Shown piece by piece: positions 31,410 to 36,623 of a stretch of 64,000 nucleotides of DNA. The notes below the pieces were generated by a model. The model ran no database searches, had not been told where the DNA came from, and was given only the letters and a program-made list of their open reading frames with translations. The stretch covers positions 1 through 64,000 of the IMG/VR virus record IMGVR_UViG_3300045974_000429; one strand, given 5' to 3'. The stretch comes from a virus. Every line of letters starts with the position of its first letter. Position 1 is the stretch's first letter. The position numbers and the translations under genes are program-made.

Positions 31410-31858
31410 GCTTTCTTTTCGCTCTGCGCCGCTTCCCGCGCGAGGCGGGAAATTGCGGCGGGTTCCGCTCCGAGCTTGTGGAGCGCGAGGCATGCCTGAA
31501 ACGCATCCGGGTGCGACAGGCGGAGAGCGAGGACGCGGCGCCTGGTCTCCGGGGTGAGGGAGGTGTCGCCGGCTAGCCTGACGACATCGCGGTGCTGCGC
31601 CGCCGCCCAGTGGCCCCAGAGCAGCTTGGCGCGCCTGCCCCGCATGCCCAGCTGGTAGCCGGTCACGTCGCGGACCAGATCGACGCCGGCGGCCTGGAGG
31701 TGCTCGCCCCAGGGAGTCGGCACGATGACCTCGCCGGCCGCGAACCGCGCGCGGCGGGTGGTCAGCGCCTGACACCGATCGCCGGCTCGGTGCTGGGCGA
31801 GCCGCGAGGTGGCAATCTCGGCGGTGCAGCCAGGGCAGATCGTTATTGGGTCGGTCAC
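31406..31858 (-). CDS. Zinc-finger-like hypothetical protein
   Basis: CPGC...H.....C near N-terminus; GTGA overlap with the VWA gene. Confidence 0.6.
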   Translation of the reverse strand: MTDPITICPGCTAEIATSRLAQHRAGDRCQALTTRRARFAAGEVIVPTPWGEHLQAAGVDLVRDVTGYQLGMRGRRAKLLWGHWAAAQHRDVVRLAGDTSLTPETRRRVLALRLSHPDAFQACLALHKLGAEPAAISRLAREAAQSEKKA

Positions 31859-33273
31859 GGCGTCGGCTCCCGGTCCACGAGGACCACCTCGCCGAACCTC
31901 TTGACGTCGTTGGTGTAGGTGCTCCCAATGAGCGCCCAGATGACCTTGGCGCCCTTGGGCTCCGGGCCGGGGTCGCCGATCATGCCGTCCGTCAGGACGA
32001 TGATCACGCTGGGCGGCGTCCTGGATTCCATGAGGAGCTTGAGGGCCGGCTTCATGTCGGTGCCGCCGCCGCCCTTGAGCTTGGAGGCCGCCTCCTTGGC
32101 GGACCTGACCTTGAGGAGCCCATCCGTGCCCGCGTCGATGGCGCAGAAGGTGACGTCGCCGCCGACCGCCCGGAGGATGCCGTCCACCTCGCCGAGGGCC
32201 TGCGCGAGCTGCGCGCCGCTCATGCTGCCGGAGGTGTCCACGACGACCGCGACGTTGGGCTTGTGGCCGTGGAAGCTCGGCATCAGCGGGCGGCCCGGCC
32301 CGTAACCCAGGCCCGCCTGCCGGCGGCTCGGCTTGGAGAAGCCCATGTCGGTGGCGCCGGAGGCCCGCATGAGCGTGCGCCGCACGAGGCGCTGGAGCTT
32401 GTCCTGCCACCGGACCTTGGGCGGCTTGATCTTCTCCTCCGCCCACCGCGCGAGCCCGCCGGGGACGCTGCCGCGCCCCTTCTGCGCAACGTGGGAGGCG
32501 ACCTCGCGCGCGACCTGCGCCCGGATGCGCTCCGCCTCCGCCTCGCCGACGCCCAGCGGGTCGCCCTGGGCGGCCTCGCCCGAGCCCTTGCCCGGCTGTC
32601 CCTGACCGGCGCCGTCGCCGTCGCCGGGCTGCGGCTTGTCCAAGCCCAACTTCTTCTCGATGTCGTGCGCGTTGCCGGCGCAGGAGCCGCACTGGCCGTT
32701 GCCAGGGCCGCCCTTGCCCGGCTGCCCCTGGCCCTTGTTGCCCTGCTTCTTCTGGGACTGCTTCTTCCGCAGCTCCTCCAGGTAGACCTGGGCGGGCTGC
32801 CCCTCCGGCATCCCGATGCTGCTCGGCAGCCAGAAGATGTTCTCCACCTGGGCCTGGGCGGCGTACTCCGCCTTCGTGAGCGGGCGACCGGGCAGTTTCC
32901 AGCCTCCGGCGACGAGGTCGTCGTTGTTCGCCATGTCGCTGGCGAGGTTCGCGTTGTGGTGCTGGCTCGGGTCCGCCTTGCAGAGCGCCTCGAACCGCTT
33001 GACGTCCTGCCGGATGAAGTGGAGCAGCTCGTGGACGAGCGCGCCGGCCAGCTCGTCCGTCGGCAGGCCCGAGACGAATGCGGCCGAGTAGTAGCAGACG
33101 TTTTGGTCGGTCATCCCGAGCGTCGAGAACCCGCCCGGCCGGACCGGCTCGCACTCGGCGGCCGGCACCTCCAGGAACACGGTCCGCGAGAGCGCCGCCC
33201 AGAAATAGGGAGCCTTCGTGCGGACCGCTCGCCGAGCGATCTGGATGCACTGCATCGCGGTCAACTTGGCCAC
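31855..33273 (-). CDS. Metallopeptidase-like (HExxH) + VWA domain protein, MoxR partner
   Basis: LVHELLH, N...D...N, Gly/Gln-rich linker, VDTSGSM MIDAS, GGGGTD, LTDG. Confidence 0.88.
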   Translation of the reverse strand: MAKLTAMQCIQIARRAVRTKAPYFWAALSRTVFLEVPAAECEPVRPGGFSTLGMTDQNVCYYSAAFVSGLPTDELAGALVHELLHFIRQDVKRFEALCKADPSQHHNANLASDMANNDDLVAGGWKLPGRPLTKAEYAAQAQVENIFWLPSSIGMPEGQPAQVYLEELRKKQSQKKQGNKGQGQPGKGGPGNGQCGSCAGNAHDIEKKLGLDKPQPGDGDGAGQGQPGKGSGEAAQGDPLGVGEAEAERIRAQVAREVASHVAQKGRGSVPGGLARWAEEKIKPPKVRWQDKLQRLVRRTLMRASGATDMGFSKPSRRQAGLGYGPGRPLMPSFHGHKPNVAVVVDTSGSMSGAQLAQALGEVDGILRAVGGDVTFCAIDAGTDGLLKVRSAKEAASKLKGGGGTDMKPALKLLMESRTPPSVIIVLTDGMIGDPGPEPKGAKVIWALIGSTYTNDVKRFGEVVLVDREPTP

Positions 33274-33275
33274 GG

Positions 33276-33590
33276 CTACCACCCACCGCTGTAGCGGCCG
33301 GAGGTGCTCCCGCGCCCGTCGCACTCGTCGCAGTGCGACGGGTGGCAGCCGGGGTAGCCGCAGGGGCGCCAGTTGCGCGGCGCGGAGCGCGGCCGCTGGG
33401 GGAACTGCTCCGCCGCCATGATCTCCGCCCCAGATTGCGGCGCGGCCGCCAGCGGCGCGGGGCAGGCCAAGTGCGCCGCCTGCGCGCCCGGCGCCCAGAG
33501 GATCTGCGTTCCGGCCGGGAACCGCGCCCCGCACTTCGCGCAGGTTCCCGGAAACTTCGCCGCCATCTGCCTCGTGCCCGTCGTCGCCAT
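33276..33590 (-). CDS. Small Cys-rich protein
   Basis: AKFPGTCAKCG...HLAC and CGYPGC....CDECD; GAGGAG RBS. Confidence 0.7.
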   Translation of the reverse strand: MATTGTRQMAAKFPGTCAKCGARFPAGTQILWAPGAQAAHLACPAPLAAAPQSGAEIMAAEQFPQRPRSAPRNWRPCGYPGCHPSHCDECDGRGSTSGRYSGGW

Positions 33591-33642
33591 CTTCGTCTCC
33601 TCGTGAGAGGGGGCGGCCGCGGAGGCCGCCCTCTTGAGTCTC

Positions 33643-33671
33643 TTTGTACGCTTCCTTTTCTTTCTTGTCTA
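33643..33671 (-). promoter_or_regulatory. sigma70-type promoter
   Basis: TAGACA-agaaagaaaaggaagcg(17)-TACAAA; GC hairpin at about 33608-33633 just downstream. Confidence 0.65.
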
Positions 33672-33675
33672 GCTT

Positions 33676-36051
33676 TTATTTCACGGCGACCAGGATCGGG
33701 TTGAGTTTGGCCAGTGTCTTCATCGACGCGGCGCCGAGCAGCCGGGCGCCGGCGAGCGCCCTGGCGGGCGCCTCGACCAGATCCGCGGCGTCATCCATCA
33801 GCGTCTCCAGGAGCGCCCACATCTTCGCGGCGCGCACCTTCTGGGAGGCGCCGGCGTCGCCGGTCACGAGCGCGGTGCAGGAGGAGAGGACCGCGTCCGA
33901 GATATCGAGGCGGTGAGGGTTGTGCTTCCACTTCGCCTTCCCGTCCAGGATCTCCGCCGGGTCCGGCAGGTCCATGTTCGTGGCGTAGGTCAGGAACTCG
34001 CCGGCGGGGCCGTCGCCGACGAAGGCTGCGACGAGCGTGTCCCGGTCGCCGGCCGAGAGGCCGTGGATCTTGGAGGCGGCGAAGGCCCGCGTGGCAGCCT
34101 CCCAGCTCCGGGGGGAGGGCCACGCCTGGGAGGCGGCCGGGCTGTTCGCCTCGGGCACCTTGAGGAGCAGGTCCGACTTGCGCTTGACGAACCCGGCGAC
34201 GAGGCCCCGAGCGGTCGCCCACGGCGTGCCCCAGGCGGCGAGCACCCGCGCCTCCTCGGCCGCCGGGTCGATGGGCGCGGCGGCGGCGCTCTCGCCACCG
34301 CCCAGGAGCCAGTTCGTCCACTCCTCGGCGGTCGGGGCCTCCCAGTTGATGTGGCCGAGTCGGTTGGCGACCGGCATCGCGAGGTCCCACCCGCCGGCCG
34401 CTTGGTCGGTCGGGTTCGCCGTGGCGAGCACCCGGACGCCCGAGGCGAGCGGCTGTCCGCCGATCATGCGCTCCTGGATGAGCCCGAGGAGCGGCGGCTG
34501 GAGCGCGGGCGGGGCGCAGTTGTGCACCAAGGTGCCGCCTGCCCCTGCGAAGAAATTGTGGTCGCGTTCGACGGTCAGGTCGTAGACGATGCAGGAAACG
34601 GCGTTGCGCTGGATTCGGTGCACGCGCACGAACGCAGGAAGTTGCGGATCAGCGCCTCCAGTGCGTCCGGAGTCCGGAGAAGCTGCGCACGAACCCGCAA
34701 GGTCCGCCAGCCCGCCGCGCGATAGTCTTGTGCTTCCAGCAGAGGCTCCGAGGGCGTTAAGCGGTCTAGCAGAATCGCCGCGCGCAGCGGCAGATCCGCA
34801 AAGTCCGGCACCCGCCAGTTTCTGCGCCCCCCCGGCGGGATCGGTACCCGCAAGCTTCCATCCCCCGTGTACGGCAGCGCGATCTTGCGCGCAGTGAGAA
34901 ACGTGATCATCTCCCGTTCTGTTGGCGTCGGTTTCGCCATGCGGAACACGCACGGGATCCGCCCGGAGATCGTGTGCGCGCGGTTCTTCGCTGCTATCGA
35001 GTCCATCTGCCCGTGCTTCCAGGCCGCCAGGAACTTGGTTGACGCCATCTCGCGCCCCGCAGCACTGCGCCAGAACGCTCCCGCAGCCCGCCCGCCCATC
35101 TGCGATAGATTTGGATGGATCTTCCGAGCCGCTGCAGCTGCACGCGATGCCGCTGCGGCCCGCTCCGCCGCGGTCGTCCTCGCGAGGAACGTTGCCGTGC
35201 TCTTGCGCTGAATTATTGCATTCACTTCGAGCGAAAGCGTTGCACGCATCTCGGCCAGCCTCGTTCCGTGCGCACGCTTCTCCGCAGCAAACGCTGGATC
35301 CGCCATCCGTGCGCGCTGCGTTACCGCCGCAGCCGCCCCGCGCCTTGCTGACATCTGCGGGTCCGCCAGCAGTGCTGCAGGGAACCGCGTGCGAAACTCC
35401 GCTACCGTCATCCCATGCCGCTTCTGAAGATGCGTCGCTGTGAGGACCCACATCGGCAGCAAGCAGATCGCGCAGCGCAACGAGGGTGCTTCCAGCGCGG
35501 AGCTGCTCTGCTGGGATCCAGCGTCCTTCGCTGTAGATGGGGTGGTCAGGGGTGCAGCGGATCGTCGTGCCATCGGTCAGCTCCAGGGTGAGCAGCGCCG
35601 TGACGCGGCGCTGCATGACTCCAGAAACCAGATTAGCGCGGCGCATCCCACGTTGCAAGGCGCAGGACCAGACGGCGTCACCGACCCGCAGCTGCTCGAT
35701 TGGCCGCTGGCCTTGTGGCGTGTGGACCGGCGTGCCTGCGGGGAAACAGGAAATCTCGTCGATGATGACCAGCCCCCTCTCCGCCATCCCGAGCGTCCAC
35801 TCGGGCGCGGGGTAGGAGAGGAGGGTGCGCCCGTTGATCGTGGTCGGGACCGGGACGACGCCGAAGGCGCCCTCGCCGCGCTCGCCGGGGGAGAGGATCT
35901 CGACCTTGAGGCCGCCAGCCTTTCCGGCCGCCTCGCAGCTCTGTGTTTTGGCGACACCCGGAGGGCCGCGGAACAGGAGGGGCAGGCCCCAGCGGTTCCG
36001 GCTGATGGGGGTGAAGAGGGCTGCGTGGAGGATCTTGGCCTTGTTCGTCAT
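33676..36051 (-). CDS. MoxR-type AAA+ ATPase interrupted by an intein
   Basis: GPPGVAKT, IIDEIS|CAPPALQ across the intein, ATANP, ANRL, PSPRSW; spliced product about 381 aa. Confidence 0.9.
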   Translation of the reverse strand: MTNKAKILHAALFTPISRNRWGLPLLFRGPPGVAKTQSCEAAGKAGGLKVEILSPGERGEGAFGVVPVPTTINGRTLLSYPAPEWTLGMAERGLVIIDEISCFPAGTPVHTPQGQRPIEQLRVGDAVWSCALQRGMRRANLVSGVMQRRVTALLTLELTDGTTIRCTPDHPIYSEGRWIPAEQLRAGSTLVALRDLLAADVGPHSDASSEAAWDDGSGVSHAVPCSTAGGPADVSKARGGCGGNAARTDGGSSVCCGEACARNEAGRDACNAFARSECNNSAQEHGNVPREDDRGGAGRSGIACSCSGSEDPSKSIADGRAGCGSVLAQCCGARDGVNQVPGGLEARADGLDSSEEPRAHDLRADPVRVPHGETDANRTGDDHVSHCAQDRAAVHGGWKLAGTDPAGGAQKLAGAGLCGSAAARGDSARPLNALGASAGSTRLSRGGLADLAGSCAASPDSGRTGGADPQLPAFVRVHRIQRNAVSCIVYDLTVERDHNFFAGAGGTLVHNCAPPALQPPLLGLIQERMIGGQPLASGVRVLATANPTDQAAGGWDLAMPVANRLGHINWEAPTAEEWTNWLLGGGESAAAAPIDPAAEEARVLAAWGTPWATARGLVAGFVKRKSDLLLKVPEANSPAASQAWPSPRSWEAATRAFAASKIHGLSAGDRDTLVAAFVGDGPAGEFLTYATNMDLPDPAEILDGKAKWKHNPHRLDISDAVLSSCTALVTGDAGASQKVRAAKMWALLETLMDDAADLVEAPARALAGARLLGAASMKTLAKLNPILVAVK
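34519..35748 (-). mobile_element. Intein (410 aa)
   Basis: Starts CFPAGTPV, block B CTPDHPI, ends VYDLTV..HNFF...LVHN followed by Cys +1. Confidence 0.93.
34575..35573 (-). CDS. Nested +1-frame endonuclease-like protein inside the intein
   Basis: CAIC...THLQKRHGMTVAEFRTRFP zinc finger, basic helical repeats, PT..E...PDF...ILLD...GWRTLRV (Vsr/DUF559-like); GGAG 7 nt before ATG 35573. Confidence 0.75.
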   Translation of the reverse strand: MARRSAAPLTTPSTAKDAGSQQSSSALEAPSLRCAICLLPMWVLTATHLQKRHGMTVAEFRTRFPAALLADPQMSARRGAAAAVTQRARMADPAFAAEKRAHGTRLAEMRATLSLEVNAIIQRKSTATFLARTTAAERAAAASRAAAAARKIHPNLSQMGGRAAGAFWRSAAGREMASTKFLAAWKHGQMDSIAAKNRAHTISGRIPCVFRMAKPTPTEREMITFLTARKIALPYTGDGSLRVPIPPGGRRNWRVPDFADLPLRAAILLDRLTPSEPLLEAQDYRAAGWRTLRVRAQLLRTPDALEALIRNFLRSCACTESSATPFPASSTT

Positions 36052-36084
36052 GGGTTTCTCCGTCGAGTGCGGCGAGGTGAAGGT

Positions 36085-36113
36085 AAAGTAAGCTTTCTTC
36101 TCTTTCTTGTCAA
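36085..36113 (-). promoter_or_regulatory. sigma70-type promoter
   Basis: TTGACA-agaaagagaagaaagct(17)-TACTTT. Confidence 0.8.
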
Positions 36114-36283
36114 GCGTCGATCTGCTCGACCTGGAAGCGCCGAGCGGCGCGAACGAAGTCGCGCGCCAGGGCGCGGTGCTCCTCGGCCAGCTCCGCCGTC
36201 TCGGCGTGGCGAGCGGCGTCCACCTCGCAGCGGGCTTGGAGGCGGAGCCAGTTGAGCATCTGCTGCGGGGTCGAGAGTTTCAT
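36110..36283 (-). CDS. Small protein (57 aa), absent from the supplied ORF track
   Basis: GAGGAG RBS; MKLSTPQQMLNWLRLQARCEVDAARHAETAELAEEHRALARDFVRAARRFQVEQIDA. Confidence 0.65.
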   Translation of the reverse strand: MKLSTPQQMLNWLRLQARCEVDAARHAETAELAEEHRALARDFVRAARRFQVEQIDA

Positions 36284-36380
36284 CGGGTTCTCCTCTGCCC
36301 TCTCGGGCGGCCATCGTCAGGGGCAGCATCACCGCCCGACCGCGGCGCCCGGAGGCGCTGGCGGTTTCGGCCTGCGCGAG

Positions 36381-36623
36381 CTAGTCGAAGTGGAGGGCAT
36401 ATACGCGGCCGTCGATTTCCGCCCAGCGGTACGAGCCCCCGTCATCGATCTCCACCCCGCGCTCCGCGGCGGCGGCAAGGAGCTTGGTGATCATCATCGC
36501 TCCGGCCTTGGTCTCAGCGTCGTAGTACTTGCCGCGGCAGCCGCAGGCGCATCCCGGCTTCCCGCTGTAGGCGCGGACCGGACTCCTCGGCGCCGCGTTC
36601 GTCTGTTCCGTCGTCGTCGGCAT
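36381..36623 (-). CDS. Small hypothetical protein
   Basis: GAGGAG RBS below a promoter; YSGKPGCACGCRGKY. Confidence 0.75.
   Translation of the reverse strand: MPTTTEQTNAAPRSPVRAYSGKPGCACGCRGKYYDAETKAGAMMITKLLAAAAERGVEIDDGGSYRWAEIDGRVYALHFD

Follow-up and report, generated by a model that had tools for sequence, protein, structure and literature searches.

We examined a window of 64,000 nucleotides, the first 64 kb of the 83,744-base viral record IMGVR_UViG_3300045974_000429 in IMG/VR, a metagenome-assembled viral contig with a CheckV completeness estimate of 88. On the minus strand of this window lies a gene for a phage ATPase, probably AAA-type and MoxR-like, that carries an intein, and over the middle of the intein a second open reading frame (ORF) runs on the same strand in the +1 frame. 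We conclude that this is most probably a non-canonical intein, with a separate nuclease gene occupying the slot that an intein endonuclease usually takes. The features of the locus are given below, with AlphaFold confidence as pLDDT, the score it predicts for the local distance difference test, and with GC3 standing for G+C content at third codon positions.

33676-36051, minus strand: host gene for the precursor of a phage ATPase, probably AAA-type (MoxR-like), intein included; a single ORF of 791 codons.
35749-36051, minus strand: N-extein, residues 1-101, with Walker B at its end; frame-0 GC3 of 0.85-0.97.
34519-35748, minus strand: intein of 410 amino acids, gene residues 102-511, recognized by the Pfam families Intein_splicing and PT-HINT and by its splice-site residues.
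35461-35748, minus strand: N-terminal splicing region, intein residues 1-96; beta-rich, pLDDT 86-97, aligning with the HINT blocks of proteins P0038-P0042.
34654-35460, minus strand: "shadow" linker, intein-frame residues 97-365; stop-free, pLDDT below 50 throughout, no Pfam domain.
34519-34653, minus strand: C-terminal splicing region, intein residues 366-410, with blocks F and G; beta-rich, pLDDT about 90, conserved with locus L010 and proteins P0039 and P0041.
33676-34518, minus strand: C-extein, residues 512-791, and the stop codon; frame-0 GC3 of 0.88-0.97, 33-40% identity to loci L002-L008.
35581-35584, minus strand: candidate ribosome-binding site GGAG, 7 nucleotides upstream of the +1 ATG, read from the sequence.
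34575-35573, minus strand: nested gene for a probable homing endonuclease in the +1 frame, 332 codons and a stop; called from the ORF, its homologs and AlphaFold.
35385-35480, minus strand: putative Ros/MucR-type zinc finger, nuclease residues 32-63 (Pfam ROS_MUCR, family profile).
34965-35360, minus strand: array of seven helices, residues 72-203, presumed to be a DNA-binding arm (secondary structure, pLDDT above 90).
34620-34934, minus strand: Vsr-like/DUF559-like nuclease domain, residues 214-318 (Foldseek, VIA-align, and Pfam in a few family members).

An intein with a second gene over its middle

Two Pfam families match the intein above their cut-offs, Intein_splicing (PF14890; E 1.5e-11, 44.8 bits against a cut-off of 35.8) and PT-HINT (PF07591; E 8.4e-9, 36.2 bits against 27.7). 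The signature residues are in place as well: Cys1 (35748), a block B Thr-x-x-His that reads Thr-Pro-Asp-His, and the terminal His-Asn (34519) followed by Cys+1. All seven related ATPase loci from IMG/VR (L002-L008) run uninterrupted from Walker B to the next conserved motif and contain no intein, and because they read through without an insert, the insertion site and both intein boundaries are secure. A preliminary description of this DNA had placed a 410-residue intein right after Walker B, exactly where we find it, and removal of the intein would leave an ATPase with a predicted length of 381 residues. The same description had counted about 280 featureless, stop-free codons in the middle of the intein; this stretch is indeed stop-free and without recognizable features, but its length is 269 residues.

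The codon composition of the intein frame changes over this middle part. Frame 0 carries the coding signal in both exteins and in the ends of the intein; across gene residues ~180-480 its GC3 drops from about 0.9 to 0.55-0.70, and the G+C-rich codon position is there the third position of the +1 frame. AlphaFold runs of both frames, each made with a small alignment, left the intein-frame linker without a confident fold and gave the +1 protein a mean pLDDT of 88.4, with 263 of its 332 residues at 90 or above. Low values in the +1 protein are confined to residues 1-30 and 325-332, which overlap the block B and block F regions of the intein. The ATG of the +1 ORF (35571-35573) is the first start after an in-frame stop one codon upstream, and the GGAG that had been reported 7 nucleotides before it is present; the ATPase's own ATG has a GGAG 6 nucleotides upstream.

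In public annotation, the nested gene is called as a protein of 243 amino acids (P0001, 34575-35306) that starts at Met90 and would lack the zinc finger, and the 791-residue precursor did not appear in searches of the protein collection. Evidently, automatic annotation mishandles this locus.

The nested protein, its family and its related loci

The +1 protein combines an N-terminal zinc finger, a helical arm and a C-terminal nuclease domain. The finger has the motif Cys-x2-Cys ... His-x3-5-His, and the window copy matches ROS_MUCR with an E value of 0.0017 (18.8 bits, below the cut-off of 25.4). Matches to ROS_MUCR at E<=0.1 occur in 9 of 24 family members, the best at 4.3e-7, and the family profile reaches the Ros structure 2jsp when run against the PDB (E 0.0062). 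For the nuclease domain, the best Foldseek match was 3r3p_B, the catalytic domain of I-Bth0305I (E 2.9e-3, target TM score 0.68). VIA-align likewise paired it with 3r3p_A (Z 10.2; root-mean-square deviation 2.3 over 90 residues), with the DUF559-like structure 3hrl (Z 10.2) and with Vsr, 1cw0 (Z 8.2). Weak Pfam matches to DUF559 and Vsr were found in three and two of the 24 members, respectively. The profile of the family alignment, A1, reached neither 3r3p nor Vsr among PDB sequences even at E<=10, so the link of the nuclease to these two proteins is structural only.

The acidic residues E219, D257, D270 and E280 are invariant across the 24 sequences, and the window copy retains all 14 family-invariant residues. 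The preliminary description had read a zinc finger, basic helices and a Vsr/DUF559-like end into the +1 ORF by eye, and its motifs prove to fall on the invariant columns P215, E219, P256, D257, F258, L268, D270 and R293, in agreement with the fold matches.

An exhaustive HMMER search of 1.84 billion representative proteins gave 37 matches at E<=0.001. Of these, 22 reach E<=1e-10: the window's own 243-residue call and 21 others, which are 214-349 residues long and 32-44% identical to the window protein. None of the 21 is a long in-frame fusion of the nuclease with an intein; all are separate ORFs. Relatives proved scarce at the DNA level. A tblastn search of 50,697 phage records with the nuclease as query gave no match, a word-based protein search with the nuclease returned the window's own 243-residue product alone, scans of IMG/VR with the ORF, alignment A2 and protein P0010 found no relatives, and a scan of genome contigs for the family found none. 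A metagenome scan was the sole source of relatives' DNA, in the form of two loci, L010 and L009.

Locus L010, a contig of 1297 bases and 69% G+C from a different metagenome, repeats the arrangement seen in the window. Its frame 1 encodes the last 100 codons of a homologous nuclease, and its frame 3, open across the nuclease, leads on through intein blocks F and G and Cys+1 to the C-extein of a homologous ATPase. Host family, insertion site and frame offset are the same in both, the intein frame being the nuclease frame minus one. Over 101 gaplessly aligned codons, the window and L010 share 39/101 identities in the nuclease frame; the intein frame has 18/100, and the third frame, in which there are stops, 19/100. 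These counts indicate constraint on the nuclease reading, with an intein frame that behaves like non-coding sequence except that it is open. Since L010 shares the frame relation at only 39% identity, we take the arrangement to be old and the nuclease frame to be under constraint. Together with the Vsr-like, I-Bth0305I-like fold, the L010 comparison also supports the dual-coding arrangement that the preliminary description had proposed.

The second locus, L009, is a contig of 1009 bases and 44% G+C that encodes a full-length nuclease homolog, whose own ATG lies 14 codons ahead of the finger. A short upstream ORF (L009:1-41) ends 8 nucleotides past this ATG, in residues similar to those that close the N-terminal part of an intein. 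Beyond the stop codon of the nuclease, L009:916-1009 contains a promoter-like pair, TTGACA and TAACAT, separated by 17 nucleotides. Judged from these few features of a short contig, L009 may represent the same element in a fractured-gene form.

The ends of the nuclease proteins carry a further trace of the register. Read in the +1 frame, the block B Asp-His codons (GAC CAC) yield Thr-Thr and the block F Tyr-Asp-Leu codons yield Ser/Phe-Thr-Thr. Seven sequences of alignment A1, which includes the window, reach at least 25 residues upstream of the finger, and five of the seven (window, P0002, P0007, P0008 and P0013) have Thr-Thr at the same or an adjacent column. A Ser/Phe-Thr-Thr motif is found in the C-terminal tails of the window protein, P0005, P0007 and P0013, and is terminal in the window protein and P0007. 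The two motifs suggest nesting at a fixed register in the family, with the nested or fractured context of the other ~20 members inferred from protein tails only.

Expression, stop codons and alternative explanations

We propose that the ATPase mRNA would be translated in frame 0 through the whole insert, and that the two HINT halves, intein residues 1-96 and residues 366-410, connected through ~270 residues of disordered linker, would then associate and splice to yield the 381-residue ATPase. Ribosomes initiating at the internal ATG (35573, with GGAG 7 nucleotides upstream) would make the 332-residue protein. This protein would cut intein-free alleles near the Walker B codons, and repair would copy the intein and the nuclease into them. 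As to origin, a free-standing endonuclease gene may have invaded a mini-intein. In DNA of ~66-70% G+C, the -1 frame of coding sequence holds few stops, so the host frame could have stayed open or been easily cleared, which would explain why the host gene was not fractured.

Several observations weigh against this proposal or lower the support for it. No His of the EDxHD type is invariant in the nuclease domain among the 24 sequences; because of this, placement with the EDxHD family is by fold alone and not by motif, and both the catalytic mechanism and the activity itself are putative. Shine-Dalgarno-like 4-mers stand by chance before 156 of the 1191 ATGs in the window (13%), so the GGAG offers weak, suggestive support. 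A promoter scan found no promoter-like (sigma-70-like) site within 33500-36500, and translation of the nuclease would therefore depend on internal initiation on the ATPase mRNA; no RNA runs containing the stretch are listed. Related DNA is limited to the two loci, and in L009 the other two frames are rich in stops, so that its nuclease is not nested in an open intein frame. The checks on the assembly have limits of their own. The stretch 33600-36100 (2501 bases) is present in one 64,047-base contig of an independent Logan assembly, made from run X1, with 0 differences, 0 gaps and a depth of 23, with the qualification that X1 is a pond metagenome and may be the source sample of the window contig itself. 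Where short contigs from a second study (X2) overlap the locus, at 34862-35364, 35556-35777 and in other pieces, they match it exactly, and none of these pieces spans the two frame junctions.

The openness of the intein frame is likewise less telling than it first looks. When nuclease codons 31-318 were shuffled synonymously, the intein frame was open in 276 of 20000 shuffles, with a mean of 3.8 stops. In the window nuclease, T-ending codons never precede codons starting with AA, AG or GA (0/41, versus 35/246 elsewhere; one-sided Fisher p 0.003). However, 29 control ORFs from the window, with high GC3, share this codon-context bias, with T-ending codons before AA, AG or GA in 48/2069 cases (2.3%) versus 507/8528 (5.9%), and their -1 frames contain 1.3 stops per 288 codons on average. 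Stops in the -1 frame are thus generally rare in this phage, because T-ending codons are depleted before AA, AG and GA, and we give the apparent stop avoidance less weight for that reason. Scaled for the bias, the expectation is ~2.3 stops for the window (P of none ~0.1) and ~1.3 stops for L010 (0/29 versus 8/69; P ~0.27). Stop avoidance in the intein frame is weakly beyond chance, which is suggestive, not proven. The preliminary description had suggested testing for selection on the +1 frame and mere avoidance of stops in the 0 frame; the comparison with L010 indicates the first (39/101 versus 18/100), and the second goes little further than chance. The layout can probably arise because an open shadow frame is cheap in G+C-rich DNA.

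The same cheapness of open frames lends something to the idea of a decaying intein, in which two real compensating indels would have put a formerly in-frame endonuclease out of frame, leaving the nuclease dead while the host frame was kept open for a needed ATPase. With so few stops (1.3 per 288 codons) in the controls' -1 frame, a long open alternative frame would demand little, and the frame switches fall exactly at the borders between splicing regions and nuclease, as they would in the descendant of a fused ancestor. We nevertheless consider decay unlikely. No in-frame relative of the nuclease was found among the 1.84 billion representatives, L010 keeps the frame relation at 39% protein identity with its identities concentrated in the nuclease frame (39/101 versus 18/100), the window copy has all 14 family-invariant residues, and in L009 the family is represented by an ORF that stands alone, complete with start and stop.

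Ranked after decay, and also improbable in our view, is a domesticated regulator, that is, a Ros/MucR-type repressor whose nuclease fold is inactive, and not a homing enzyme. A Ros/MucR finger is a hallmark of regulators, and the missing invariant EDxHD-type His would fit an inactive domain. Against this, the four acidic residues E219, D257, D270 and E280 are invariant in the 24 sequences, as expected for a metal-dependent nuclease, the gene occupies the canonical endonuclease slot of an intein, and the best fold match is a proven homing endonuclease.

We regard programmed recoding as very unlikely. Here a +1 shift near the end of the N-terminal splicing region, perhaps with a shift back before block F, would yield the nuclease as a segment of the intein polypeptide. 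The structured portion of the nuclease does begin within ~8 codons of the end of the N-terminal HINT region and stops ~15 codons into the C-terminal part, and the first 30 codons from the ATG are predicted to be disordered. Two shifts would be required, though, and reading the junction by eye, with no formal search made, revealed no slippery or shift-prone motif. The +1 ORF also begins with an ATG of its own, immediately behind a stop and preceded by GGAG, and in L009 a normal stand-alone start lies 14 codons ahead of the finger.

Finally, the chance that two indel errors in sequencing or assembly displaced a normal in-frame endonuclease is negligible: the window is a metagenome-assembled contig, but the X1 assembly (2501 bases, depth 23) is identical to it, as is X2 where it covers the locus, the same frame offset recurs in the unrelated contig L010, and the family members are all called as separate ORFs, so that an artefact is excluded for practical purposes. 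The preliminary description had named two outcomes that would speak against its own reading, namely compensating indels and a +1 ORF lacking both a nuclease fold and conservation. Neither occurred, as the X1 assembly has 0 differences and 0 gaps and the +1 protein has a Vsr-like fold and 21 homologs at E<=1e-10, and the reading of a separately encoded nuclease within the intein is supported by that outcome.

The host gene and known systems

The host protein matches PHROG 1297, "ATPase", over residues 511-724 (E 4.4e-23), and Walker A and Walker B can be read by eye in its N-terminal 101 residues. Pfam AAA gave nothing at E<=1 for the window ATPase; for the homologous protein P0043, AAA and AAA_5 match just below their cut-offs. 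The next gene downstream (31855-33534, minus strand) encodes a DUF2201_N domain (metallopeptidase-like, E 1.2e-23) and a VWA-like DUF2201 domain (E 2.9e-18), and with the ATPase gene it forms an ATPase/VWA pair in a phage. Genes of the DUF2201/VWA type are the usual partners of MoxR-type ATPases. From this neighbor, we take the window ATPase to be probably MoxR-like. Just past the ATPase stop codon, a G+C-rich hairpin of 12 pairs followed by a T-rich tail (33607-33635, plus strand) resembles a terminator, and it lies on the strand opposite to the ATPase.

P0043 is 48% identical to the window ATPase over the C-extein and has another intein, at a different conserved site further downstream, with an in-frame LAGLIDADG-like domain (PF14528, E 1.9e-4, just below the cut-off). 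It was the only other long intein-bearing allele of the window ATPase that a protein search turned up. Because it carries a different intein at another site, we consider this ATPase family a repeated intein target. A scan of the rest of the record for other inteins found none. Elsewhere, the splicing blocks of inteins in a SNF2 helicase (P0039) and a large terminase (P0041) resemble those of the window intein, and the middles of both are long, without a Pfam endonuclease domain, and shadow-like in composition. From composition and length, these two inteins may hide further out-of-frame endonuclease genes.

The preliminary description implied that the layout was new, which it is not: out-of-frame and antisense intein endonucleases have been described. 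Gosselin, Arsenault & Gogarten (bioRxiv 10.1101/2025.01.02.630785, preprint) report actinophage inteins overlapped by antisense LAGLIDADG, antisense VSR-like and frame-3 endonuclease VII-like genes, with an unstructured in-frame middle, and propose that these arose through invasion by free-standing endonuclease genes. Their inteins share with ours a contiguous intein, a foldless in-frame middle and a second ORF over the same DNA that encodes an endonuclease; their VSR-like enzyme also has a long helical stretch and matches 3R3P, and the origin proposed is the same. The two differ in that the VSR-like genes of that study are antisense, with an endonuclease VII-like gene in frame 3 as the same-strand case, whereas the window has a sense-strand, +1, Vsr-like gene. 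The actinophage inteins sit in DNA polymerase, minor capsid, terminase and thymidylate synthase genes, whereas here the host is an apparently MoxR-like ATPase, and the nuclease has a Ros/MucR finger. Given the empty tblastn search of 50,697 phage records, the window nuclease is not a close relative of the actinophage cases.

Phillips, DeSimone & Gogarten (bioRxiv 10.64898/2026.09.14.751524, preprint), who credit Gorbalenya 1998, "Non-canonical inteins", describe an out-of-frame LAGLIDADG gene in a cyanobacterial dnaX intein. As in the window, the endonuclease ORF overlaps the intein on the same strand, the intein-frame region is predicted to be disordered and the endonuclease frame is under purifying selection, and those authors propose secondary invasion of a mini-intein. 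Their case is LAGLIDADG, dnaX and cellular, whereas ours is Vsr-like, in an ATPase gene and in a phage.

Dassa et al. 2009 (PMC2677866) found free-standing Vsr-like endonuclease genes between the split-intein halves of fractured genes. The likeness lies in a Vsr-like gene with its own start inside the intein-coding region and an end that overlaps the downstream intein part, mostly in phage-like DNA. There, however, the host gene is in two ORFs whose products are joined by trans-splicing, whereas the window has one continuous 791-residue ORF. A fractured gene with a split intein is ruled out here by that uninterrupted frame, and cis-splicing is to be expected because the host frame is continuous.

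For the nuclease itself, the nearest characterized enzyme in fold is I-Bth0305I, an EDxHD homing endonuclease with the structure 3r3p (Taylor et al. 2011, PMC3239194). It shares the catalytic fold and a bipartite layout, with an N-terminal DNA-binding region and a C-terminal nuclease. Identity is only 16-18%, and the window family is without an invariant EDxHD-type His; I-Bth0305I has NUMOD motifs and belongs to a group I intron, in contrast to the Ros/MucR finger and helices of a protein encoded in an intein. Hidden out-of-frame HNH genes in phage methylases (ShiLan-type; PMC11855218) also place an endonuclease ORF with zinc fingers out of frame inside a stop-free host ORF and pose the same question of how it is translated. 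They differ in having no splicing domains, their insert being thought to stay in the protein, and in encoding an HNH nuclease.

What appears to be new here is the protein that hosts the intein, the placement of a Vsr-like gene on the sense strand in the +1 frame, and the nuclease family. By our literature searches, a sense-strand out-of-frame Vsr-like gene in a contiguous intein, which Dassa 2009 and Gosselin 2025 do not describe, appears not to be in print, and neither does an ATPase of this type as host, with the reservation for both that supplementary tables of the preprints may list further cases. Our literature search likewise found no Ros/MucR finger on a homing endonuclease. The layout having been described, the locus does not open a new field. 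Inteins that are overlapped by their mobility gene as an ORF of its own form a small set, to which the locus contributes a clean and well-supported example. It also supports the view that splicing came first and that endonucleases invade later, and it suggests that high G+C content permits such invasion without breaking the host gene. The compact, apparently modular nuclease could also interest enzyme engineers.

We offer one extension tentatively, as a possibility that we think less likely than its negation: that the Vsr-like nucleases with a Ros/MucR finger are an undescribed family of homing endonucleases co-evolving with one intein lineage at a fixed register. In that event, the start codon would lie within the block B Asp-Gly codons (GAT GGC read as ATG) and the stop within block F, short stretches would be truly dual-coding, and the family would also be present in A+T-rich DNA with closed other frames, as in L009, possibly as a fractured gene. 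Genome G+C content would then decide between fracture of the host gene, as in the model of Dassa et al., and a tolerated read-through "shadow", and the two published arrangements would be linked in one natural series.

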